Positions 668 through 12,395 of a stretch of 32,000 bases of DNA are shown here, in pieces. The position numbers and the translations under genes were made by a program. The stretch is from Candidatus Thorarchaeota archaeon. GTDB lineage: Archaea > Asgardarchaeota > Thorarchaeia > Thorarchaeales > Thorarchaeaceae. Within the stretch, counting starts at the first letter, position 1, and each line of letters starts with the position of its first letter. The stretch lies in contig SHMX01000001.1 of NCBI GenBank assembly GCA_008080745.1, positions 300,001 to 332,000 on the forward strand. The letters are read 5' to 3'. The notes under the pieces are model-generated. The model saw only the letters and a list, made by a program, of their open reading frames with translations. It had not been told where the DNA came from and did no database searches.

Positions 668-732
668 GTTGATTGAAAGTTGGACAAACTTAGACAGGGT
701 CTAAGCAGTCCGTCCAGCAACGGCACTGGACG
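668..732 (-). ncRNA. Candidate 3' part of TnpB omegaRNA scaffold at the IS right end (5' limit unknown)
   Basis: Two perfect 7-bp hairpins, CGTCCAG/CTGGACG (711-732) and CTTAGAC/GTCTAAG (689-705), overlap the tnpB 3' end and lie just before the element end, where TnpB omegaRNAs are encoded. Confidence 0.5.
680..698 (+). repeat. IS607 right-end subterminal 9-bp motifs (putative TnpA sites)
   Basis: TTGGACAAA (680-688) and TTAGACAGG (690-698). The first is the exact reverse complement of the left-end TTTGTCCAA. Confidence 0.7.
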
Positions 733-2770
733 ATGCATCTTGTACGTGAATGATGTTTCTAGCCGCATTCACATCGGCATGAAAGTGCTCATCACATCCT
801 GAGCAATAAAAGTACTCTCCACCTCGGGTTTCGGTGGTAGCATGAGCATCCTTGACCCGGACCCCCTTCTGTCCACACTGATGGCAGAGCTGGGAGGTAT
901 GCCAGGGGTTGACGGTCCACACAGAATACGGACTATGACCTACCTGCTCCCGCATGTACCTGACCGTGTCGATGATCTTACCCCAGAGGTTGGAACTGAG
1001 GTTGTATGACAGGTCCTTGGACCCACCATGAGCCTGAAAGCTCCGGAGGTCCTCAAAGAAGATCTTTCGAACCCGATGCTCCTCGCATACCCAGACGGTC
1101 TCAGAGGCCACTGTTCGAGCCACCTCTCGGTCAAGACGACGAACCTTTCTCCACAGGGCATCGATGTGTCTATCCTTCTTGAGGATATGCCCAGGATAAA
1201 CCTGTCCTGACCGTTTGCGGTCCCAGTTGTTCTTCTTCCGTTTGGACTCTGAGATCAATGTGTAAGCCTGCTTTCGCAGGAGTTCTCGCTTCTGGATCAA
1301 ACGTGCAGCTCCGATGAGGCGGTCCACGAACTCTCGGCCATCCTTAGTATCTCGTTCTATCGAGATGGCCACAGGTGACCGAAGGCCTCGGTCAACTCCC
1401 GCCTTTGCGTCATAGTCTCGCTCCCCCAGAACCTCTTCAATGAGGGTATCATCGGGAGCCATGAAGGGAATCTGCAGGGTGACCCGTCGCCCATCCACAA
1501 GAATACGAGGAGGAGCACTTCGACGGGACTGACGCAATATATGTACCTGTTTCTCTAGCTCGGTTATCTGTTCCTCGTCCCGGTTCCGCCTGGCCTTCAG
1601 TCGTGCTAGGAGATGAGCTGCGTGCTGAAACTGGATGGTGTTTATGAGCTGGTGGTGCATGTCGTCAAATTTTGCTGCTCGAAATAGCAGTTGGTCTTTT
1701 CGCTGAAGGTCTGCAGTCTTCTCAGCCATCCCTCTATCATCATTCGCAGCTCGGGAGAGCCAGTTGAGAAAGCGAAAGCTCAAGGTTCGCTTTTTATACG
1801 GAGAGGCATCGTGGTCCCTTCCATCGATACCTGGGGGAAGCTTGAGATGAAGGAGAATCTCCTTGGGTCGGTCCTCATCCACGGTGAACCAGTACCCCTG
1901 CCCGATACTGTTCTCGGTTGATGCAGAGAAGTCGAGGGAATAGTTACGAAGCTGGGGGGTGGTGAAGGGATAGCCCTTCTTATCCCAGTGCTGGAGGAGC
2001 TGGAGGACCATACCTGAGACCTGCCCATAGTCCGGGGAACTGGTCCTGAGGAGTGATGCTATCTTCTTTCGTTGTGTGCCTCGCCACTGGAGCTTGATTC
2101 CCATAGTATCTAGTACATGCTGGTCCACGGCATACCGGAGCTGTCTCAGTACCCCCATAGCGTAATGAAATCCGGACCCGTTATCCTTAACGGCATCACA
2201 GGCATCCCGGACCTTTCGGATCAGGGCTCCGGGGATACGTTTTCGCCGCATCAGGCTCAGGGCATCATCGGGGTCCTTTACCAAGACCGTAACCGCTGCT
2301 GTGAAGAGCTGACGTCGGGAGTAGTCCGCCAAGACCATCCGTCCCACCTGCTCCAAGGCATTGCGATGGAGTCGTTCGTAGATCAGGGTCTTGAACTCGT
2401 CATTCTTTTCGTAACAGAGGTCTTTTTCCCTGCGAAGGAGGGTGTAGGCTCTTCCGCGGTATTCAGAGAGAGCCTTACCGATAGTCTCCGCCCGGGTTGG
2501 TGAGGCATAGACTCGGTCCAACATCATATTTACTACAGTGACATACTTCTCGAAGTGTCTCATCAGCCGCTCAAGGTCAATACCCTTGACCTTCTGACCG
2601 GAGCCCTTAGCAACCAAGCGTAATTGATGGGTCTGTGTATCTTGTCTGAAACGGGGGTCGGGTCGGTTGCCCTTGCCGCGCCGCTCCACTACCCGGTTAA
2701 CAGAATTCAGAACGAAGGACTCGACGAGATAGGAAACCTTTGAATTCCTACTAATATATTTGCCAGTCAT
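701..2770 (-). CDS. tnpB: Large TnpB/Cas12f-like RNA-guided endonuclease (~689 aa from MTGKY; ORF open from 2839)
   Basis: RuvC-I GVDRG, RuvC-II FFEDL, zinc ribbon CHQC...CSGC, RuvC-III HADVNAARNI. Located downstream of IS607 tnpA. Confidence 0.88.
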   Translation of the reverse strand: MTGKYISRNSKVSYLVESFVLNSVNRVVERRGKGNRPDPRFRQDTQTHQLRLVAKGSGQKVKGIDLERLMRHFEKYVTVVNMMLDRVYASPTRAETIGKALSEYRGRAYTLLRREKDLCYEKNDEFKTLIYERLHRNALEQVGRMVLADYSRRQLFTAAVTVLVKDPDDALSLMRRKRIPGALIRKVRDACDAVKDNGSGFHYAMGVLRQLRYAVDQHVLDTMGIKLQWRGTQRKKIASLLRTSSPDYGQVSGMVLQLLQHWDKKGYPFTTPQLRNYSLDFSASTENSIGQGYWFTVDEDRPKEILLHLKLPPGIDGRDHDASPYKKRTLSFRFLNWLSRAANDDRGMAEKTADLQRKDQLLFRAAKFDDMHHQLINTIQFQHAAHLLARLKARRNRDEEQITELEKQVHILRQSRRSAPPRILVDGRRVTLQIPFMAPDDTLIEEVLGERDYDAKAGVDRGLRSPVAISIERDTKDGREFVDRLIGAARLIQKRELLRKQAYTLISESKRKKNNWDRKRSGQVYPGHILKKDRHIDALWRKVRRLDREVARTVASETVWVCEEHRVRKIFFEDLRSFQAHGGSKDLSYNLSSNLWGKIIDTVRYMREQVGHSPYSVWTVNPWHTSQLCHQCGQKGVRVKDAHATTETRGGEYFYCSGCDEHFHADVNAARNIIHVQDASSSAVAGRTA

Positions 2771-2873
2771 TGTCTTATGCTCTGTCGTTGATTCACTCTC
2801 AGACTCTTGCCTCCAGGACTGGCACTGGATTTGTTCCATCGTTCTGGTTCTCCACAGTACTGTGCTGACTGTA

Positions 2874-3239
2874 CTATATAATCTCAGTACAAGATATCCG
2901 TCGCATATTCAGCCCTGAGCCTACATCCGTAAAGACCATGGGTCCCGTCTTGAACCGAACTCTACAGGCCCTGGTCAGCAACTCTAACTGCCGGTCCAGG
3001 TCACCATCGGTCTTCTGTCGATGTCCCGAGACCCGGGCGTAGACTGCACATCTCTTTCCTCCGGGTGAATCCAGTAGTTTTCGATGAAAGATTCCCAATA
3101 CTCTGTTGACCTCTGCAAGGGCTATCCGTCGGTGGTTCCCTGCGGTTCTATGACAGGTGAGAAATCCTCGGGCATCCCATCGCCGGATGGTCTTGGTGCA
3201 CACACCCAAGCGCCGTGCTGCCTGTGATACTGTGAACAT
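2874..3239 (-). pseudogene. tnpA: IS607 serine transposase TnpA, C-terminally truncated (121 aa)
   Basis: MerR-type HTH (AARRLGVCTKTIRRWD), catalytic YARVS and DVGSGLN are present. The ORF stops before the DRLxR motif and helix E. Confidence 0.88.
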
Positions 3240-3266
3240 ATTAATACTTCAAAGAATCAGCTGATA

Positions 3267-3285
3267 TATGTCCACCTTTGTCCAA
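3267..3285 (+). repeat. IS607 left-end subterminal direct repeats
   Basis: TATGTCCAC (3267-3275) and TTTGTCCAA (3277-3285), 10-nt spacing, ~22-40 nt inside the left end. Confidence 0.7.
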
Positions 3286-3307
3286 GTTTTCACGGACTGT
3301 TTCCTAC

Positions 3308-4203
3308 CCCTCCGAGTCAAACGGAATTCTTCCTTGAGGTCCCTCAAGAGTTCCATCATCAATCATTGTGACCATATCAGATGCAATCTTCTTTCCAACC
3401 ATTCCTGTAAGAAAAGAACGCTCTTTGACTACTTCGTCAGCCTCACTTGCATGTCCACATACCTCGTGAGCTATCAGCCCTGCGACATCACCATCCATTA
3501 TAACTTTCAGTTTTCCAGAGGGGGGTTTTTCTGCTTCTAGTAATTTTAGGGCGGAATGAGCACAAGTACCAGCAAAATCAACAGGATCTATTTCTCGTAC
3601 AAGCTCATAACCCTTAGAGCCGGACCTAATAGCATAATCATACTGAACTGTAGATTCGTCTCTCACTACTGGTTGAACCATCAAAATGGTTCGTATTTCA
3701 TCCCAGGCGAGGCGTGTTCCCAGGGTATTTACTAGATGATATACACGTTTGCCATCACTATATACACTATTTGTATTTACGACCTTATCGTCTACTTTCT
3801 GGGCCTCGTCTAATTCCATAACAATATCCAGTTTCTCAGATGCGCTCACAGAAATCGGGTCTTCTTTGACCTTTTGCCACACTGTTTTCTCGACTGGAGT
3901 GATTCTTGAGAGATCTATGTTCTTTCAAGAATATTTAGCTCCCGCCTTTGCCATCTTTACTGCGGTTTCAAGCAACTCGTATAACCGCATTTCAGTTACC
4001 TTCCGAGTCATCGACGCTTGGCCCCAACACTCTCCAACAAGAGCACGGGCAACAGTACCAGTAGCAGAGGGCTGGGTAAAACTCCGCAAACGCCCATTTT
4101 GAGCCATCATTCGAGAACTCTTTCGAACCTCGTGACGAATATCAGCAAAAAGAGGTTCCTTTTTTGAAAATTCCTCGATGACTTCTCCCATCATTTCTAA
4201 CAT
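3308..4203 (-). pseudogene. tldD: tldD 5' fragment with in-frame TGA at 3925-3927
   Basis: ORFs 3925-4203 and 3304-3882 share one frame, separated only by TGA (AKYS*KNIDL). The HEVCGH metalloprotease motif and PFDSEG are present. The reconstructed protein is ~462 aa. Confidence 0.9.
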
Positions 4204-4260
4204 GTGATGTCACTGAGATTTGTGGATGCGTTTGTGAAATAAGTCTGCTTGCCAGAGCAG

Positions 4261-5175
4261 TTAGAGGAATAATGTGCCTCTGAGAATCAATACAGCAGTT
4301 CCACCTACTCTTACCTGCGATATATTTTCCCGATCACCTGTAACCTCAACAAAGACATTCCCCGGACGTCCAACATAGTGCCCCTGTTCAACAACGATAC
4401 TTGTAACTGGAACAGATGGATCCATGAGCCCATACTTGAGAATGTAACCAGCCATAGCTCCAGCACCAGACCCACTAACAGGGTCTTCATTAACTCCCAA
4501 ACGTGGTGCGAAGTGTCTCACCTGAAAGTCAGAGGTCACATCCCGGACATCATGAGTAAAGACCTGAACCGACACATAGTCTGCATCTTGACCAAGCTCT
4601 ACCAGTCTCTTCCAGTCAGGAGAGATGTTATCAAGAGCACGTTGGGTCGATACTGGAATCATCAGATGAGGGGTTCCGGTACTTACAGTCTGTATAGGAT
4701 TAATAGTCGAGAAGTCAGCCAATGTAAGTCCCAACGCTTCTGCATAGTCCTTCGGGTCGTATGCTTCCATGAAGGAGGGAGTTGAATGCAGTATCTGAAC
4801 TTCATGGTTACCCGTGGTGTCATTACGAACAATTTCTACATCAAGAACCCCTGTTGAGGTCTCTAAAGTACACATGTTCACGTCCTGTACTACTTCAACC
4901 AAGCCTTCCTGAATGAGGGCATGGAAGGCTGCAATAGTAGGATGGCCAGAAAATCCAAGTTCTCCATTAGGGGTCATATACCTGAATTTGAAATCTGCAC
5001 GATTAGAACTTGAAACGAAGACTGTTTCACGAACGTTGAATTCTCTTGATATCTTTAGAAGATTCTCTTTGGATATGTGATTTGCACCCAGTACCACAGT
5101 GGCAGGATTACCACCAAAAGGTATGTCTGTGAAAGCATCTACATGCATTATTTTTAGTTCGCGCTGACGTCTCAT
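4261..5175 (-). CDS. PhzF family isomerase/epimerase
   Basis: VDAFTDIPFGGNPATV, FSGHPTIA and EDPVSGSG motifs. Confidence 0.9.
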   Translation of the reverse strand: MRRQRELKIMHVDAFTDIPFGGNPATVVLGANHISKENLLKISREFNVRETVFVSSSNRADFKFRYMTPNGELGFSGHPTIAAFHALIQEGLVEVVQDVNMCTLETSTGVLDVEIVRNDTTGNHEVQILHSTPSFMEAYDPKDYAEALGLTLADFSTINPIQTVSTGTPHLMIPVSTQRALDNISPDWKRLVELGQDADYVSVQVFTHDVRDVTSDFQVRHFAPRLGVNEDPVSGSGAGAMAGYILKYGLMDPSVPVTSIVVEQGHYVGRPGNVFVEVTGDRENISQVRVGGTAVLILRGTLFL

Positions 5176-5491
5176 ATTCCATCAACTCTTCATCATATGA
5201 AAATAACCTATTAAGGTCTCATTACATGGCTGATGAAAAGTTTGCAAAAGAGAAGGTGCGGGCACATGGAAATCGTGGTAGGAGGGGGGAGTTTCGTAAT
5301 TGAGGGCATGTAACGAAAAACTAGCCATGTACCCGCTTGTTTTTCTTGTTTTATGCTTGGTATGTACCACTCAATTTACTGTCACAAAGTGACTAATTGT
5401 AACATGAATTGAATTCTTTTAATTATTTCGGTCTTTAATGGAAAAATTAACAGGATTAAGTGCTAGAATATTATTTTACAAAAGAGTGAGG

Positions 5492-5512
5492 GAGGATGCG
5501 GTCTGCATCCCC
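5492..5512 (-). terminator. Hairpin + U-tract after tes 3' copy C
   Basis: Minus strand GGGGATGC-AGACC-GCATCCTC (8 bp with one G-U pair), followed by CCTCACTCTTTT, 8 nt after the stop. Confidence 0.6.
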
Positions 5513-5520
5513 GCGAATTA

Positions 5521-5750
5521 TTAATCTTTAGCAACAAAGGTTTGGAGATAGATCTTCCTCAACCTTGTCTGGCCTACGGCGTTCTCTCCACTCCTCGATC
5601 GGAATGCTGAACTTCTCCTCAGATATTGCACGGTGAATGGTGTTCATGGTGCAGAACGGAATGGTTCGACCGTCAGGAACAGAATAGTTGATATCACAAT
5701 GAGAAACTCGTTCAAGATCGAAAGTGTATGGGTCTTGGAAGTGCATCATT
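5521..5750 (-). pseudogene. Orphan 3' fragment of tetraether synthase, copy C (decayed, two 1-nt deletions near the end)
   Basis: MMHFQDPYTFDLERVSHCDINYSVPDGRTIPFCTMN aligns to the tes C-terminus. The tail is frameshifted relative to ESISKPFVAEE. Confidence 0.9.
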
Positions 5751-5804
5751 GAAATTGGGTTGCGGGCGGTTTGTTTTTGGATGTAATCAATTACTACCTC
5801 AAAA

Positions 5805-6212
5805 TCAATAGGATTCAACTATCAATCCATCGATTTTCTCGAAATGGCGTTGATTGTTTGTCAGAATGCGAGTGACACCAGAAGATATTGCAACACCTGC
5901 AATCATAACATCTCGTATTCCAATAGGGTGTCCTCTCTTCTTCAGGCTTGCTAAAACTCTTCCTGCCTCTATAGCCGCTAAGCGAGTGAAGGGAAGAACC
6001 TCAGTCTGAGCTAGTATCTGTTCCAACTCCAGTTGTCTCTTTCGTATCTTTGAATCCTGTTGAATAGGCATGCCATATAGACCACTATATAGTTCGAAAG
6101 CATTTACTTCTGAAGTATACATGGCCATGGACTCATGTTCTGACAACCAAGAAACAGCATGCGGCTTTCTTCTCAAAATATCAACTAGAAACGTTGTATC
6201 AAGAAAGATCAG
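5805..6212 (-). CDS. vapC: VapC-type PIN-domain toxin (probable CTG start at 6212)
   Basis: The frame extends upstream of the listed TTG to give IFLDTTFLVDIL. SEVNAFELY, IGIRDVMIAG and LTNNQRHF are PIN motifs. Confidence 0.9.
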   Translation of the reverse strand: MIFLDTTFLVDILRRKPHAVSWLSEHESMAMYTSEVNAFELYSGLYGMPIQQDSKIRKRQLELEQILAQTEVLPFTRLAAIEAGRVLASLKKRGHPIGIRDVMIAGVAISSGVTRILTNNQRHFEKIDGLIVESY

Positions 6213-6454
6213 CTCAAGTCAACTCCTTCATAGGACGAAGACTGTATCTCTTCAAGGATCTCTTCTAAGGCGGTTTCTTCTTTTTCTGTTAGATCACTCC
6301 ATCCCTCAGATGTCTTTACCCACTGAAGTAAAGATGAAGTTGTCTTTCCGCGACAGAGGCGGGAGATAGTATCGCCAAAACTCTCACCGGGAAGCTTCAT
6401 CTTCTTGAGAAGATCATATACTTCTTCAGTAACAGAAATTGTCTTGGATGCCAT
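6209..6454 (-). CDS. vapB: Archaeal VapB-family antitoxin
   Basis: MASKTISVTEEVYDLLKKMKLPGESFGDTISRL matches the archaeal VapB antitoxin pattern. Acidic C-terminus; its stop overlaps the vapC start. Confidence 0.88.
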   Translation of the reverse strand: MASKTISVTEEVYDLLKKMKLPGESFGDTISRLCRGKTTSSLLQWVKTSEGWSDLTEKEETALEEILEEIQSSSYEGVDLS

Positions 6455-6466
6455 AGTATTCACACT

Positions 6467-6493
6467 CTACATATGTATATGTAGATATATAAA
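6467..6493 (-). promoter_or_regulatory. vapBC promoter: TATA box plus palindromic operator
   Basis: Perfect 8-bp inverted repeat CTACATAT-GT-ATATGTAG (6467-6484), directly downstream of minus-strand TTTATATA and just upstream of vapB. Confidence 0.65.
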
Positions 6494-6548
6494 CTCTGAT
6501 TCTTTTCAAAAAATAGTCTGAGGACTTTTGAGGTTGGAAAAAGAGGGG

Positions 6549-6568
6549 GAGGATGCTCGTGCATCCTC
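6549..6568 (-). terminator. Hairpin + U-tract after tes 3' copy B
   Basis: Perfect 8-bp stem GAGGATGC/GCATCCTC followed by CCCCTCTTTTT on the minus strand, 6 nt after the stop. Confidence 0.65.
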
Positions 6569-6574
6569 AAACGT

Positions 6575-6815
6575 TCACTCGTCCTGTGCTACGAAGGGAG
6601 TGGTGATGGATTCCTCTTCCATCTTGTCGGGTTTTCTGCGTTCTCTCCACTCTGCCAAGGGGATACTGAACTTCTCCTCAGATCTTGCACGGTGAATGGT
6701 GTTCATGGTGCAGAACGGAATGATTCGACCATCGGGTAGGGAGTAGTTGATGTCACAGTGCTGGACTCGTTCAAGATCGAAATTGTATGGGTCTTGGAAG
6801 TGCATCATGCCGACC
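6575..6815 (-). pseudogene. Orphan 3' fragment of tetraether synthase, copy B (intact 77-codon frame)
   Basis: (LVG)MMHFQDPYNFDLERVQHCDINYSLPDGRIIPFCTMN...EEESITTPFVAQDE is homologous to the tes C-terminus. Confidence 0.9.
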
Positions 6816-6895
6816 AGCTGATTTTTTTCTAAGACAGTAGTAGGAAATCATTTCAAAGGAATAGTGAAAAAAGAAGGTATCCCGAAGGATACCGA

Positions 6896-7591
6896 TTATG
6901 TGAAGAAGTTCCAGCTTATGTAGTGAGTGTCCCAGTCAGCATTGCCATTAGGCCATGAGGTCTTGTAGAACTCAGAAAATCCGGACAAGCCTGCACGAAG
7001 CCAGATTCCCACAAAGTAGTACTGAGAAGTTGAGAATTCGTAGTAATCATTGAAGTATAGCGAATCATAGATGTCTTTGTATCCAGTAGAACTGGACCAG
7101 CTCTGACTGTTCTTCTGGCTCCAAGATACACTATCACCAGGATGATAGGAACTCCATCCCCTGACAATTGGAGTACTCTGCCCCATATCAACAACTACCC
7201 AATATGCCTCCCAAGACGCAACACTTAGCCAGCCAGAACTGATACCATAGAGGAAATCAGCATCGATTGAGAGTTGCAAGTATTTATGGGAGGAATCAGC
7301 TGGCTTGATCTTGATGAGACAGTAGAATTCCAAATAAGCAGTACCTATTCCACCATCTCTATCACCATGGAAATCAAAATCCCCATTGTACTCATGAGCT
7401 GAAACATAGGTCCAGACATTTGAATCGTAGCCAGACTTCACAAAGGCAACCATCTGCGCACTTCCCGAATAGACCGTACCACTATTAGCCTGAATCCCTG
7501 TAGGATCATGCAGAGCAGCAACTGGTTTTGGAAAGAGCACAAGGGCCACCAGAAACACTGCACAAAACAGTAACTTTCCATTTGTTTTCAA
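6896..7591 (-). CDS. Secreted hypothetical protein (signal peptide; Ser/Trp/Tyr-rich)
   Basis: The N-terminus KTNGKLLFCAVFLVALVLFPKPVAA looks like a signal peptide. No family recognised. Confidence 0.7.
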   Translation of the reverse strand: MKTNGKLLFCAVFLVALVLFPKPVAALHDPTGIQANSGTVYSGSAQMVAFVKSGYDSNVWTYVSAHEYNGDFDFHGDRDGGIGTAYLEFYCLIKIKPADSSHKYLQLSIDADFLYGISSGWLSVASWEAYWVVVDMGQSTPIVRGWSSYHPGDSVSWSQKNSQSWSSSTGYKDIYDSLYFNDYYEFSTSQYYFVGIWLRAGLSGFSEFYKTSWPNGNADWDTHYISWNFFT

Positions 7592-7705
7592 TCACGTTAC
7601 CCCGTACCAAGAATCTGGTACACTATACCAGACGCATAAGAAATATAAAAAAAAATATCGAAATATATAAAAGATTAATCGAATAGAAAATCTTGGTAGA
7701 TGTGA

Positions 7706-8206
7706 TTGAAAGAACGTAGCGAAAGGCAGGGTGCCCCGTGGTGGCTTCCAGTTCTAATCATTGCGGTTGTATACTTTGTTCCATGGAACTTCAATTTCTT
7801 TAGCTTCAGAAAGATACTTTATCTTGAAGCTCTGTCTTGGAGACTAACTGTCTTTGGAAACCCATACGAAATGGCTTTTGGATGGGTTAGATTTGATGAA
7901 ATTATCCTGGGGATACCATTCTACATCTTCTTTCATCTCTTCGCGATTCAATGGTATAGACTCTATGAAGGGAAAGCCTCAGTTCGAAGTACTCTAATCC
8001 TTGGCATTCTTACTATCAGCATCCAAGCGTTCATTATCTTCATGACTATGTTACCTATATTGTGGAATCCATCATGGCCATATGTAGTACCTCCTAGCTA
8101 TCCGATTCCAGTATGTGCCTTCATCGCATGGATCTTCATCAAGGTGTATCCCCCACCGAACCAAGAACCTGAGTCGGACTGGCTTGATGAAGAAAACTCA
8201 GAGTGA
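7706..8206 (+). CDS. Hypothetical multi-pass membrane protein with acidic tail
   Basis: About four hydrophobic segments; C-terminus PPNQEPESDWLDEENSE. Divergent from the secreted-protein gene across an AT-rich spacer. Confidence 0.7.
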   Translation: MKERSERQGAPWWLPVLIIAVVYFVPWNFNFFSFRKILYLEALSWRLTVFGNPYEMAFGWVRFDEIILGIPFYIFFHLFAIQWYRLYEGKASVRSTLILGILTISIQAFIIFMTMLPILWNPSWPYVVPPSYPIPVCAFIAWIFIKVYPPPNQEPESDWLDEENSE

Positions 8207-8245
8207 TTTCGTTTCAAGACTGGAAAGAAGGGAAAAAGAAGGAGA

Positions 8246-8265
8246 GAGGATGCAAAGACATCCTC
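8246..8265 (-). terminator. Hairpin + pyrimidine tract after full-length tes (copy A)
   Basis: GAGGATG-TCTTTG-CATCCTC followed by TCTCCTTCTTTTTCCCTTTC, 9 nt after the stop. Confidence 0.65.
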
Positions 8266-8274
8266 AATGATCGA

Positions 8275-9927
8275 TTACTCTTCAGCAACAAAGGGCTTGG
8301 AGATGGATTCTTCCTCAACCTTGTCGGGCATGCGACGGTCACGCCACTCTGTCAAGGGGATACTGAACTTCGCCTCTACACGTGGTCTGTGTAGTGTGTT
8401 CATTGCACAGAACGGTATGATTCGTCCGTCAGGAACAGAATAGTTGATATCACAATGCGATACACGCTCAAGATCGAAGTTGTATGGATCCATGAAGTGC
8501 ATCATTCCTACCATGATAACACGCTCCATAAATTTAGACAGAGAGTCATAATCACCGCGATCAAGGAATGCACCGATAAGGTCCTTAATGAGGCCCTTTC
8601 TCTTGATATGACGAACACCAGCAGCTAATTTAGCCTTAGCCCGTTTGCTAGCGGCACGTTTACCATCAGCATAGAGGTTTGCGATTTCCTCAAGGAGTTC
8701 AATGAACTTATCAACGTCAATAATGTTGGTGATTGGTTCGTAAGAGCCATCATCGTTGATATAGAGGAAAGTAGACATACCACAGGCGAAGTGAGAGCTT
8801 AGTTCTAATTGAGGAGTGCCTTTCATTAGACCAAGTGCACGCCCAACAGGCATCATAGCTGGAACAGGATACCATTCCGAGGCCGGGATCTTACCATCAG
8901 TCTGTTCTTCGATGAGCTTGATACAATCGGGGATGGTAATACGCATCTCTTGACGCTTGTCATAGTCGATACGACCAGTGATGCTTACTGGTTGGAAGTT
9001 CACACAACGGATGACATCGGAGTTCTCAACTGCAAATTCAACTATGCCGCCAAGCTGATCATGGTTAACACCACGAACTACTGTAGGAACAAGAACCAAC
9101 GAGTCAAGTCCGGCTTTTCGACAGTTTTCAATGGCATCCATTTTGACTGGAAGAAGATTACTTCCACGAGCTTCGATATAAGGTTCAGGGGTTATGCCAT
9201 CAAATTGCATATAGATTGTGGATAGACCTGCATCTCTGAGTTCTTGGGTGTATTCCAGACTCTTACCAATACGAATAGCATTACTTGCAATCTGAGTATG
9301 TCGGAATCCAAGCTCCTTTGCCCATCGGATATATGTTGGTAGATGTTTACTAACAGTGGGTTCTCCACCAGCGAATTGAATGGCTGGTGCTGGGACAGGA
9401 AGGTTACCTCGTAGATTTTTCAACATCTCAAATACTTCTTCAGGAGTTGGCTCATAGACAGTTCCAGATTCAGCAGCATGAGCAAAACAGATAGGACAAC
9501 GTAGATTGCATCTATTGGTCACATCAAGCAGAGCAAGCGCAGTGTGGGACTTATGCTCGGGGCACTGACCACAGTCTTCAGGGCAGCCTTTTACGGTTTC
9601 GGTTCTAGGATTATCAAGACCGACAGTTTTGTACCACCATGACTGGGCCTTTCTGAACATATCAACATCGCCCCAGTAGATGTCTTTGAACTCGCCATGA
9701 GTTTCACAAGTCTTCTTGAACATGACCTTACCATCTTCTTCATAGAGGGTGGCATCGATGACGGTTACTTTATCATCACTTAATAGACACTCAGGACAGA
9801 TAGACTGAGTATCATAGGGGAGCTTACGTATCTCATGTTTTTCAACATGATAACGGGACAACTCATCCCCACTCTCAGCATGTTTAATGGGTTCTGCTGG
9901 AACAGGATCAACTTTTTCATGTACCAT
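8275..9927 (-). CDS. tes: Tetraether lipid synthase Tes / GDGT-MAS (MJ0619-family radical SAM), ~550 aa
   Basis: N-terminal SICPEC and GCPEDCGQCPEH; radical SAM CNLRCPIC; QFAGGEPT; HFACG; C-terminal HFMDPYNFDLERV..CDINY..PDGRIIPFC. Confidence 0.88.
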   Translation of the reverse strand: MVHEKVDPVPAEPIKHAESGDELSRYHVEKHEIRKLPYDTQSICPECLLSDDKVTVIDATLYEEDGKVMFKKTCETHGEFKDIYWGDVDMFRKAQSWWYKTVGLDNPRTETVKGCPEDCGQCPEHKSHTALALLDVTNRCNLRCPICFAHAAESGTVYEPTPEEVFEMLKNLRGNLPVPAPAIQFAGGEPTVSKHLPTYIRWAKELGFRHTQIASNAIRIGKSLEYTQELRDAGLSTIYMQFDGITPEPYIEARGSNLLPVKMDAIENCRKAGLDSLVLVPTVVRGVNHDQLGGIVEFAVENSDVIRCVNFQPVSITGRIDYDKRQEMRITIPDCIKLIEEQTDGKIPASEWYPVPAMMPVGRALGLMKGTPQLELSSHFACGMSTFLYINDDGSYEPITNIIDVDKFIELLEEIANLYADGKRAASKRAKAKLAAGVRHIKRKGLIKDLIGAFLDRGDYDSLSKFMERVIMVGMMHFMDPYNFDLERVSHCDINYSVPDGRIIPFCAMNTLHRPRVEAKFSIPLTEWRDRRMPDKVEEESISKPFVAEE

Positions 9928-10108
9928 AATATTCGCACTCCATGAGGCGATTAGTACCACCACTAAAGAGGGTGGTATTCTGGTGATTGGTCATCAAAAA
10001 CCGAATATAACCTTTATCCGAAGTTTCAGAGTATGAAAGCTAGTACGAGATGTTTCATGCTAATTGTGTGATGGATTCATTATTATATCAGTCAAAATAT
10101 GTTTTCAT

Positions 10109-10894
10109 ATGCAACTTGATTTATTCACTACTGGTTTTACAGCTATTGTGATTTTTCTTTCTGCACTCGTCCATGGAATAGCTGGCTTCGGAGCTGCTCA
10201 AGTTGCTATGGGTCTTCTTCCGCTCTTTCGAGACCCAGCTGCTGGGTCAATCATCTTCACCTTCATCGCAATTGTATTGAACTTGAGAGTATGGTGGAGT
10301 GTCCGTGAAGATTTCGCGTGGAAAGATTGGCTCATCCCCGTGAGCGGTCTTTTGTTAGGCTTGCCGACAGGGATATTTCTTTTTCAGGGACTTGATGAAA
10401 CCGCACTGAGAATTGTAATTGGAATCACTTTAGTGATAGGTGTGATACTCATTATCATAATGCGTATGACAGAAATAGGAAAAAGCTGGATGAAAGAATC
10501 TTCACTCAAACTGGGGTGGAAAACAGGAGTATTGGCTGGTTTCTTTGCTGGTATCTTGGGCGGTTCGGTAGCAATACCTGGACCTCCAATGATATTGTAT
10601 GGAACATATCTTTTGGCAACCGAGGAATGGAAAGGAAATCATACAAAAGCTGTCTTTACTGCCTTCTTTGGTACGCTGATGACCTATAGACTAGCTTCAC
10701 TTGCCTTTGTTGGAGCGATAACGTTTGATTTAGCATTAGAAGCGATGGTTGTTATGCCTGCACTCTTCATTGGTTCAGCAGTCGGCATTTTTCTCTATAA
10801 GCGAATAGATGAAACAAAATTCAGATGGATAGTGCTGGTTGGTCTAGCCATGAATGCATTCATTCTTATCTTAACAGCTATCCCAGAGTTCTAG
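10109..10894 (+). CDS. TauE/SafE family sulfite exporter-like membrane protein
   Basis: SALVHGIAGFGAA and GILGGSVAIPGPP repeats; about eight TM segments. Confidence 0.85.
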   Translation: MQLDLFTTGFTAIVIFLSALVHGIAGFGAAQVAMGLLPLFRDPAAGSIIFTFIAIVLNLRVWWSVREDFAWKDWLIPVSGLLLGLPTGIFLFQGLDETALRIVIGITLVIGVILIIIMRMTEIGKSWMKESSLKLGWKTGVLAGFFAGILGGSVAIPGPPMILYGTYLLATEEWKGNHTKAVFTAFFGTLMTYRLASLAFVGAITFDLALEAMVVMPALFIGSAVGIFLYKRIDETKFRWIVLVGLAMNAFILILTAIPEF

Positions 10895-10937: not shown

Positions 10938-12395
10938 GTGTCGATGCTTGTGGATAGTAGAAATTTAACACTGCTTCAAATAAATGACAGTCACGCCTAT
11001 ATTGAACCACACAATGAATATTTCTGGAATGGCGAAGAACTTGTGATTAGGGAAGCAGGAGGATATGCCAGAATTGCGGAATTGGTGAAAACCATCCGTG
11101 ATGAAAAGAAGAACCAAGTATTATTCTTAGATAACGGGGATACAATTCATGGAACATACCCAGCAGTAACAAGTCATGGAGAAGCCATGGTTCCCATATT
11201 GAATAGGATGGGTATTGATGGTATGACACTTCACTGGGAGTTTGCATATGGGCCAGAACAGCTGAAGAAAATATCAAAGATGATAGATTACCCCTTCTTG
11301 GCCTGCAATACATACAATGAAGAAGACGGAAAATTGGTCTATCCTGCATATGAGGTGTACGAAAGAAATGATATGAGAATAGGAGTTATTGGAATTGCAA
11401 ACAGAATAGTAGATGTAACCATGCCCGTACAGTTCAGTAGGGGTGTAAAAATAACTAAAGGCGTTGATGAATTACCAGATCATATCAGAACCCTTAGAGA
11501 AAAAGAACGTGTTGATTTAGTAGTCGTCCTTTCACATCTTGGACTGCCACATGCAAATTATATCGCTGAGCACATTGATGGAATTGATGTCTTTCTCAGC
11601 GGACATACGCATAACCGGCTGTACATGCCATTTGTGGTTAACAATACGATTATCATTCAATCTGGATATCAAGGCTCATTTATTGGAAGATTAGACCTCA
11701 GTATAAGGGACAAAAAGATAGTAGGATTCAAGCATGACCTGATTGAGATTAATGAGAATATACCCGATGACCCAGAGGTCAGAGAAGAGGTGACTAAAGT
11801 GATGGAACCTCATCGTGAGATGCTTCATGAGGTTGTTGGCGAAACCAAGACTCCTCTAGCCAGACATAGAGTTATGGAGAGTACAATGGATAACTTCCTT
11901 CTTCAGGGCCTAATCAATACATCAGATGCAGAGTTAGCATTTTCAAATGGATGGCGATATGGTGCGCCTATACCGAAGGGAAATATAACAATGGAGGACC
12001 TCTGGAATATCATTCCCGTTAATCCACCAGTTTCAGTCTGTTCAATTACTGGAGAAGAACTACTAGTTATGATGGAAGAGAATCTTGAAGCTACCTTCTC
12101 TCGAGACCCTTTTGGACAGATGGGAGGTTATGTGAAAAGGTGTTTAGGGCTGCATATCTATTTCAAAATTGAGAATCCTAAAGGCAGGCGAATTCAAGAC
12201 TTCTTCATTGGTAAAGAAAGATTGGATAGGAAAAAGACATACCAAGCTTGTTTTGTGACAACTCAGGGTATTCCTGAAAGGTATGGATCCGAACGAAGAG
12301 ATTTGGATATTGACGCTATTGAGGCTTTGCGACTGTTTCTGGATGAAAAGAAAAGTGTGAAAGCAAATCTACGAAATGCCATTGTCGCAATATAA
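10938..12395 (+). CDS. 5'-nucleotidase-superfamily metallohydrolase with SoxB-like signature
   Basis: NDSHA, GGYARIA, DNGDT, HWEFAYG, SGHTH, WRYG and DPFGQMGG motifs. No signal peptide. Confidence 0.8.
   Translation: MSMLVDSRNLTLLQINDSHAYIEPHNEYFWNGEELVIREAGGYARIAELVKTIRDEKKNQVLFLDNGDTIHGTYPAVTSHGEAMVPILNRMGIDGMTLHWEFAYGPEQLKKISKMIDYPFLACNTYNEEDGKLVYPAYEVYERNDMRIGVIGIANRIVDVTMPVQFSRGVKITKGVDELPDHIRTLREKERVDLVVVLSHLGLPHANYIAEHIDGIDVFLSGHTHNRLYMPFVVNNTIIIQSGYQGSFIGRLDLSIRDKKIVGFKHDLIEINENIPDDPEVREEVTKVMEPHREMLHEVVGETKTPLARHRVMESTMDNFLLQGLINTSDAELAFSNGWRYGAPIPKGNITMEDLWNIIPVNPPVSVCSITGEELLVMMEENLEATFSRDPFGQMGGYVKRCLGLHIYFKIENPKGRRIQDFFIGKERLDRKKTYQACFVTTQGIPERYGSERRDLDIDAIEALRLFLDEKKSVKANLRNAIVAI

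Follow-up and report, generated by a model that had tools for sequence, protein, structure and literature searches.

In Escherichia coli the prophage e14 is found between icd and icdC, a C-terminal pseudogene, and recombination between the two ends yields chimeric proteins (PMC13626634). Integrated elements of Thaumarchaeota occupy 3'-distal parts of protein genes, where one site is re-used in tandem (Krupovic et al. 2019, PMC6563490). Here a comparable locus is described in a Candidatus Thorarchaeota archaeon, at the 3' end of tes, the predicted tetraether lipid synthase gene. The window, i.e. the whole stretch of 32,000 nucleotides that was analysed, is G000:C1:300001-332000 of a metagenome-assembled genome (MAG, G000). 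In this window the end of tes is present three times, once in the live gene (copy A) and twice as orphan ends (copies B and C) between tes and its neighbour phzF, and two small cassettes of unrelated genes lie between the copies. The tes array is the same kind of event as the insertion of e14 in icd and as the archaeal 3'-end elements, and it is new for the gene and for the phylum; unusual here are the length and divergence of the replaced end and the tiny, integrase-less cassettes.

As in the case of e14 and phage 21 in icd, an element within a protein gene supplies a replacement 3' end, the enzyme stays functional and the displaced C-terminal fragment persists as a pseudogene at the far end. 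Direct repeats of the target 3' end around the insert, an unoccupied site in relatives and a common core at each junction could all be observed, but not an integrase encoded in the element: e14 carries its own integrase and excises, while the tes array is without a recombinase. The tes locus also differs in being built of two tandem events with 0.8-1.4 kb of cargo in an archaeal host, and in the approx. 25% divergence of its ends, which are nearly identical in icd. With the elements of Thaumarchaeota it shares the archaeal host, the protein-gene 3' target, the flanking direct repeats, the empty site in relatives and the re-use of the site. Those elements, however, have short attachment (att) sites (e.g. 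13 bp) and use tyrosine integrases or Cas1, whereas the tes repeat, about 270 nt in length, is made up of diverged coding sequence and a terminator, and no integrase accompanies it.

Tandem islands without an integrase beside integrative elements are known from the accretion of cis-mobilizable elements (CIME) and integrative and conjugative elements (ICE) at the fda 3' end of Streptococcus thermophilus, and from the composite islands of the staphylococcal cassette chromosome (SCC) at rlmH. These too are recombinase-less tandem cassettes bounded by repeats of the target-gene 3' end and presumably mobilised in trans, but they are bacterial, their repeats are short and identical, and recombinases are known in related strains. 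The compact one-operon cassettes in one orientation, the hairpin-bearing repeat after each of them and the toxin-antitoxin cassette resemble integron arrays. An integron could nevertheless be ruled out, since the genome has no match to PF00589, hence no IntI/attI, and the repeat is the end of a protein-coding gene under codon constraint and not attC; the tes junction, moreover, is at the 5' edge of the repeat. The target-site duplication of a transposon or casposon was rejected as well, since the copies are about 270 nt long and 23-27% diverged, mostly at third positions, and no inverted repeats flank the cassettes.

The original prediction, made from the sequence of the window, regarded the array as undescribed for an archaeal membrane-lipid gene. 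No such case was found for a membrane-lipid gene, and as far as our literature search reached this is the first described 3'-end-replacing integration in such a gene and the first in an Asgard protein-coding gene; replacement of the 3' end and tandem re-use of a site as such are known in bacteria and archaea (PMC13626634, PMC6563490). The finding provides a concrete att-like core and a genus in which the missing mobile element can be sought. Its weight is moderate, since it comes from one MAG and its mechanism is a proposed one.

Three tes ends at a site that is empty in relatives

The source genome has a size of 3.16 Mb in 19 contigs and is 98% complete. It was compared with other Candidatus Thorarchaeota MAGs, among which G001 is the sole other species of the genus available. 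A repeat search of the window revealed a direct-repeat family of 279 nt with three members (5479-5757, 6538-6816 and 8235-8513). By blastn against the whole genome the tes end was found at these three places only, with E values of 2e-48 and 9e-42 for the orphans. The copies comprise the last 230 nt or so of tes and its terminator hairpin, lie in the same orientation and are 73-77% identical to each other. On the coding (minus) strand their alignability begins abruptly at ATGATGCACTTC, a 12-mer identical in all three, and the homology spans 76 codons, the stop codon, the hairpin and a T-rich tract. The hairpin has a conserved 8-bp stem (GAGGATGC/GCATCCTC), and those of A and B obtained a terminator-like score. 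Upstream of the 12-mer B resembles tes for about 8 nt further (TGGTCGGC vs. TGGTAGGA) and C does not. The extended 20-mer is present at A and B, and a pattern search detected it only there and, with 2 mismatches, in the tes2 paralogue.

The three copies in one orientation, and orphans beginning around an identical 12-mer, had been proposed from the sequence and were confirmed by the repeat search, the genome-wide blastn and the alignments, with the 8-nt extension of B as a refinement. It had also been noted that C is frameshifted and B intact. B is indeed an intact 77-aa open reading frame (ORF) at 6575-6808, starts with ATG-ATG and has 88% amino acid identity to the Tes end of G001, while in C single bases are deleted at two places near its end and three second-position changes are unique to it. 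C is the sole decayed copy and abuts the native flank, which fits the order of events proposed below.

Features of the window discussed in the text (coordinates in the window)
Feature	Position	Strand	Basis or remark
Live tes gene, predicted GDGT-MAS/tetraether synthase, 562 aa	8275..9963	-	Pfam, PDB 7TOL, G001 orthologue
Junction core in live tes: TGGTAGGA + ATGATGCACTTC	8494..8513	-	12-mer encodes M487-M488-H489-F490
Copy A: live 3' end (76 codons), stop, terminator hairpin, T-tract	8235..8505	-	hairpin 8265-8246
Cassette 2: 166-aa multi-pass membrane protein	7706..8206	+	several hydrophobic segments; no Pfam match
Cassette 2: 231-aa secreted ORFan (sec231)	6896..7591	-	own terminator-like hairpin 6893-6876
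Copy B: orphan tes 3' end, hairpin, T-tract	6538..6816	-	repeats, alignment, hairpin scan
Cassette 1: predicted VapB antitoxin	6209..6463	-	PF02697, E 1.9e-12
Cassette 1: predicted VapC PIN-domain toxin	5805..6176	-	PF01850, E 1.5e-12
Copy C: most distal orphan tes 3' end, two 1-nt deletions, hairpin	5479..5749	-	repeats, alignment
phzF-like gene, native downstream neighbour of tes	4261..5175	-	PF02567
IS607-type element	668..3314	-	truncated tnpA 2874-3239; 712-aa tnpB 701-2839

The synteny of tes and phzF was compared between genomes, as had been suggested. The order in G001 is tauE-tes-phzF-(PmbA/TldD pieces), with a tes-phzF gap of 362 bp. phzF is found downstream of tes, on the same strand, in 40 of the 57 Thorarchaeota loci, and the spacer is 338-863 bp long in 23 of these 40. 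The blastn alignment of the window with G001 falls into two pieces: one is continuous through tes to the end of the terminator of A (window 8235), and the other opens with base 5749, the first of C, crosses the intergenic region and continues into phzF and beyond. The 110 nt after the hairpin of C match the G001 intergenic region (local score 34 vs. a null of 11.4 ± 2.0, p<0.002), and no match was seen for the flanks after the terminators of A and B or before the cores of B and C. Thus the empty site in relatives and the two-piece alignment make the 3.1 kb between tes and phzF lineage-specific, i.e. an insertion at a site which is empty in G001 and many other genomes. The native upstream sequence runs on into A, and C is joined to the native downstream flank, which is the geometry of attL and attR. 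The three copies have a common left boundary within about 8 nt and a common right one at the terminator T-tract, and beyond this their outer flanks show no relationship. A fixed array with the same cargo was not seen in relatives, G001 and the 23 loci having a short tes-phzF spacer.

The array structure is real. Two marine-sediment runs of one study are the probable source of the MAG, and their k=31 contigs were examined. These tile 4000-10500 without mismatches, at a depth that is even throughout each run (43-47 and 120-142), and they break only where copies share at least 31 nt (a 32-mer between A and C, a 38-mer between B and C). They show neither joints nor alternative paths nor variant letters. 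Chimeric joining of strain variants via shared k-mers, the artefact that the original prediction had warned of, could be suspected because the copies share identical stretches of 32-38 nt, exactly where the contigs break, and because the MAG has 4.8% contamination. However, non-tes sequence precedes both orphans, which are themselves complete with core and terminator, something that path errors between tes strain variants cannot produce; all pieces have equal depth in both runs, again with a single path and no variant letters; and ordinary reads span the shared stretches, which are shorter than 40 nt. An assembly artefact is thus extremely improbable. Circular forms, excision joints and empty-site variants, which had been proposed as targets of a search, were not found in the contigs of the two runs, from which rare variants are dropped.

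Divergence of the ends and the putatively exchanged terminus

The differences between the ends concentrate at third codon positions. Counted at first/second/third positions they are 15/6/36 for A-B, 7/7/27 for B-C, 8/3/37 for B-G001 and 8/6/34 for C-G001, and in each pair the concentration is significant against an equal distribution (p<4e-4). B and C are therefore retired, once-functional alleles and not decayed duplicates, as the idea of former Tes ends displaced downstream implies. Since even change at the three positions is expected of dead duplicates, most of the divergence arose while the ends encoded a functional Tes C-terminus, and since there is one live end per genome, it arose in different genomes or on elements. 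Signs of relaxed constraint are restricted to C, with its second-position changes and frameshifts.

Live Tes is 91% identical to its G001 orthologue, but the differences are unevenly distributed: 37 of 482 residues differ before the boundary, 5 of 200 in the adjacent stretch and 15 of 76 after it, so that divergence rises from 2.5% to 19.7% at the boundary. The downstream/upstream ratio is 2.57 (Fisher p 0.002), compared with 1.08-1.66 in eight control pairs, none of which is significant. The difference of A from B, C and G001 begins with the nucleotide that directly follows the 12-mer. In a tree of the 300 codons upstream, G000 and G001 group together with a bootstrap of 100, while in the tree of the 3' segment B (92) and C (85) are the partners of G001 and A stands outside. 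Since the approximately unbiased (AU) test, with only 234 nt, rejects neither A + G001 nor the alternative placements of A, the divergence step is a stronger argument than the tree. As judged by these sequence comparisons the live end looks swapped. Of the predicted exchange of the C-terminus, the anomalous divergence from G001 starting at the 12-mer has stood, though the AU test permits a native live end.

The enzyme itself could be assigned by homology. Pfam finds the radical SAM domain PF04055 and the HMPTM zinc ribbon PF23545, and residues 51-542 match the GDGT-MAS structure PDB 7TOL with an E value of 1.4e-162; on this basis the live gene is predicted to encode a genuine GDGT-MAS/Tes tetraether synthase homologue. 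In the 7TOL chain C29/C32 are the published rubredoxin ligands C9/C12, which gives a numbering offset of 20 (a 20-residue tag); chain M459 is therefore native Met439. Met439 serves the C-terminal auxiliary [Fe4S4] cluster as its labile ligand (PMC9433317). The counterpart of Met439 in G000 Tes, by the 7TOL alignment, is M488, the second of the two Met residues that the core 12-mer encodes, so the exchanged module is most of the C-terminal cluster domain, which adjoins both lipid pockets. If the live end was exchanged, nature has made viable tetraether synthase chimeras, with the joint at the residue that aligns with the catalytic auxiliary cluster's labile Met ligand. Such chimeras are ready-made test constructs for how the C-terminal domain tunes the enzyme.

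Other tes genes were noted in the course of these comparisons. The genome has a second Tes paralogue of 60% identity (G000:C6:48750-50312), with TGCTTGGTATGATGCATTTC at the core, and a third, distant radical SAM relative of 30% identity (G000:C1:622670-623572); no orphan ends were found near either of them. In another archaeal lineage (JGI/ENA contigs L061-L063; about 7960-8001 in L061) the frame of tes shifts at an A11 run, some 25 codons upstream of the boundary, so that two ORFs of 415 and 91 aa are read. The identical 91-aa product occurs on 18 contigs from several samples; a sequencing error that recurs, a slippage site or a genuine split could account for it. On L065 a 65-aa Tes C-terminal remnant (8001-8198), without a tes body, lies between a histone gene and the gene of ribosomal protein S25e; since tes sits at this position on the related contig L064, the L065 lineage appears to have deleted tes and retained only its 3' end.

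Proposed mechanism and alternative explanations

We propose that the array arose in the G000 lineage by two successive site-specific integrations into the 3' part of tes, each with replacement of the 3' end, the integrase being now gone; we give this reading a somewhat better than even chance. Each incoming circle would have carried an att site made up of a short core, the complete and functional last 76 tes codons and the terminator. The core would be ATGATGCACTTC, perhaps reaching TGGTNGGN upstream. Crossover at the core would join the host tes body to the end brought by the element, keeping the enzyme intact, and the former end would be displaced downstream of the cargo. The first event would have brought in vapBC and retired the native end, C; the second would have brought in the membrane/secreted pair and retired B. 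The recombinase genes and most of each element would have been lost later, or the cassettes may have been mobilised in trans, and gene conversion among the three tandem ends would have generated mosaics. The cargo, a vapBC pair and a rare ORFan pair, consists of mobilome-type genes, in favour of integration. The core stretch is extremely conserved, the distant lineage L061 carrying 25 identical nt (ATGATGCACTTCCAAGACCCATACA), and such a conserved core would be the type of sequence that integrases typically exploit.

Several results do not sit easily with this proposal. With its length of about 270 nt the repeat far exceeds the usual att sites of archaea. No recombinase is encoded inside the array (5478-8516), and the tyrosine recombinase profiles PF00589 and PF16795 had no match in the 98%-complete genome, although the positive controls fired; PF00239 matched only small IS607-type TnpA genes. 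The integrase that the original prediction would have looked for elsewhere in the genome was thus not detected as a tyrosine recombinase. The predicted hotspot is seen in this one genome only: another mid-contig orphan tes end was found neither in 86 genomes of the family, nor in 400 of the phylum, nor in the 57 loci with 6-kb flanks. An intact vehicle was absent from viral contigs, from metagenomes and from among the short Tes-end ORFs. The GC content of the cassettes is host-like, and the arms of cassettes 1 and 2 show no significant similarity to each other. A as the sister of G001 is not rejected by the AU test on 234 nt (p 0.25), and C is not uniformly the most G001-like copy. Finally, the ends are mosaic, with 28 runs of informative sites vs. 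54 expected (p<1e-4). Blocks in which B=C, A=C or A=B alternate, and no single-crossover history explains all of them. Recombination beyond the two integrations is therefore required, and it must have taken the form of gene conversion between the tandem copies or of repeated exchange with incoming alleles. The mosaicism weakens any simple statement on which end is native: of the swap as first pictured the displaced ends are retained, but clean whole-end swaps are too simple.

The serious rival is homologous recombination of the Campbell type, in which circular foreign DNA with a tes 3' fragment enters by a single crossover within the 270 nt or so of homology, no dedicated integrase is required, and repeated crossovers give the mosaics. 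The strong mosaic structure, the identical 32-38 nt stretches that could support recombination, the long shared region and the failure to find an integrase all suit it. We nevertheless regard it as unlikely, since the two unrelated cassettes would both need fragments starting within about 8 nt of one position, and there is no obvious reason why random circles should carry exactly the segment from core to terminator under purifying selection. The divergence of A directly after the 12-mer, moreover, places the last crossover at the very edge of the homology and not at a random internal point. The array could instead be old and static, formed before G000 and G001 separated and lost from relatives through deletions between its direct repeats, without any recent or repeated integration. 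Divergence among the copies (73-77% identity) equals their divergence from the end of G001, the cassettes have host-like GC, and recombination between the repeats would leave a single mosaic end, as in the excision of e14 (PMC13626634). This is decidedly improbable, however: the empty arrangement is found in several genera and would require many independent precise losses, the third-position-dominated divergence of the orphans cannot accumulate in copies that are dead in one genome, B is fully intact and C only lightly damaged, and the cargo proteins are rare and found elsewhere in unrelated contexts.

An explanation compatible with the two integrations is that the orphan ends were retained for a function, either as a silent conversion reservoir for the C-terminal cluster domain of Tes or, in the case of B, as a free 77-aa module. 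The intact ORF of B from its ATG-ATG and the exchange among ends shown by the mosaicism would fit, and so would the two-ORF tes on 18 contigs, where the C-terminal part may act as a separate chain if the frameshift is real. The A11-run break may, however, be a sequencing error or slippage site, C is frameshifted, the 86 family and 400 phylum genomes include no other that keeps such copies, a promoter scan of the sigma-70 type stayed at background level, and the youth of B explains its intactness equally well. We consider retention for function very improbable.

Further searches were directed at a vehicle and at a second example. No relative of B was found in viral contigs, the exact arm/core junction of cassette 2 had no match in metagenome and viral contigs, and sec231 homologues aligned to metagenome or genome contigs gave nothing. 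Identical PhzF or VapB proteins led to the source sample's own contig or to nothing. Stand-alone Tes C-terminal ORFs were sought among 5.8 billion proteins and those on long contigs were inspected; no integrase lies beside any of the ORFs inspected. All candidates were rejected: P0006 is truncated at a contig end, P0008 has a frameshifting deletion, P0012 and P0026 come from error-ridden assemblies, P0105 represents the A11-run frameshift on 18 contigs, and P0062 is what remains of a deleted tes. In G060, a candidate second example, two contigs overlap by an identical 127 nt, which is an ordinary assembly break, and the 7.4 kb before phzF contain ordinary genes and no second end. Spacers of 1.2-5.2 kb at 17 other tes-phzF loci are filled by ordinary genes specific to their lineages, namely a TldD/PmbA pair, a methyltransferase, an HD hydrolase, a GH3 enzyme and an FAD oxidoreductase.

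Cargo, the IS607-type element and neighbouring genes

The cargo left in the two cassettes amounts to 0.8 kb and 1.4 kb and is as predicted, ORFs and Pfam confirming secreted and membrane protein genes between A and B and vapBC between B and C; a repeat search of the window found no inverted repeats bracketing the cassettes. vapB is directly upstream of the PIN-domain vapC at a distance of 32 nt, and by domain content the two are predicted to form a VapBC toxin-antitoxin pair. The 231-aa protein has an N-terminal signal-like hydrophobic segment and no Pfam match. It is encoded by a single copy in the genome and has only 3 homologues among the 5.8 billion proteins. Distant homologues of the 166-aa membrane protein are paired with sec231 homologues on three contigs (L053, L054 and L056), and elsewhere this pair adjoins insertion sequence (IS) elements and toxin-antitoxin genes.

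It had been stated that no integrase or transposase lies in the array. This holds within 5478-8516, but an IS607-type element, linked elsewhere to the cargo pair, is found nearby, 2.2 kb beyond copy C and 3.6 kb from the membrane/secreted pair. Its gene content places it in the IS607 family. TnpA, of the serine recombinase type, has a MerR helix-turn-helix and the first third of the resolvase domain (resolvase positions 2-51 only), and since tnpA is truncated the element is probably not autonomous. A TnpA homologue is encoded elsewhere in the genome, at G000:C16:9293-9616. The oversized TnpB (712 aa) has a Cas12f1-like TNB domain. The GC content of the element is 50-56%, vs. 40-46% for the host. 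Compared with G001 it is a precise insertion specific to G000, between pieces of a PmbA/TldD-like gene, and the ORFs that flank it are adjacent in G001, G009, G022 and G052.

The membrane/secreted pair directly adjoins homologues of this element in two other Asgard contigs, L054 (56% identity; tnpA and a tnpB fragment) and L056 (46%; tnpB only), in the order and orientation of the window. The cargo pair and the full-length tnpB are both single-copy in the genome. A shared arrival of the pair and the IS, followed by a local hop of the IS, is plausible. The tnpB family is common, however (about 190 matches, in 41 of the 86 family genomes), and the three copies found within 6 kb of tes against about 0.7 expected (own Poisson estimate, p about 0.035) are weakly suggestive. 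The IS607 transposons resemble the tes case in this proximity to the pair, here and on the two other contigs; they differ in that the tnpA present is truncated and the element is cleanly inserted elsewhere, in the PmbA/TldD-like gene. Duplication of hundreds of target bases is not known from IS607 transposition.

A more far-reaching scheme, which we consider improbable, is that the tes 3' end of Thorarchaeota would be a docking site for integrase-less cassettes moved by IS607-type TnpA/TnpB. The membrane/secreted pair would have arrived with the IS, which then hopped 3.6 kb, and the stacked translatable ends would form a conversion reservoir that reshuffles the C-terminal [4Fe-4S] cluster domain of this essential lipid enzyme from the residue aligned with its labile Met onwards. 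The rare secreted/membrane pair and the IS607 element with its oversized TnpB provide a separate lead on the movement of small modules in Asgard archaea.

On L054 (2103-4109) two 230-aa ORFs flank a 157-aa membrane gene, and one of them is the sec231 homologue; the unit on L053 and L054 has Asgard signature genes around it (Roadblock/LC7, Arf-like GTPase). About 8 kb of L054, with a degenerate tnpA and a tnpB, are bracketed by a 26-nt direct repeat (636-661, 8605-8630). The repeat and its two flanking Robl_LC7 genes were rejected as a duplicated gene end, the genes being 28% identical paralogues, and the 26-nt motif is absent from the window. In a different Thorarchaeota genus (L077:6281-11075) IS607-type remnants fill the tes-phzF interval: a C-terminal fragment of tnpB abuts the tes terminator, tnpA fragments are present, and unrelated ORFs of 233 and 795 aa lie between.

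The gene interrupted by the IS607-type element is represented by three small ORFs (window 3925-4203, 3304-3882 and 173-628), which are pieces of one PmbA/TldD-like metallopeptidase and correspond to domain 1, to domain 2 with the start of domain 3, and to the rest of domain 3. Since G001 has the same three pieces without the IS, the split predates the insertion of the IS; the pieces may represent a pseudogene, a gene that is recoded or one that is genuinely split. Between C and phzF a 51-nt intergenic sequence (window 5273-5323) recurs at G000:C3:125145-125195 (100%) and C4:258385-258431 (85%). This dispersed repeat has raised depth in the source runs, with contigs leaving it in several directions. 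The SoxB-like 5'-nucleotidase (window 10938-12395) matches its G001 counterpart (L038, about 7719-8075) only at residues 4-81 and 429-485, and the G001 gene seems to have an internal deletion.

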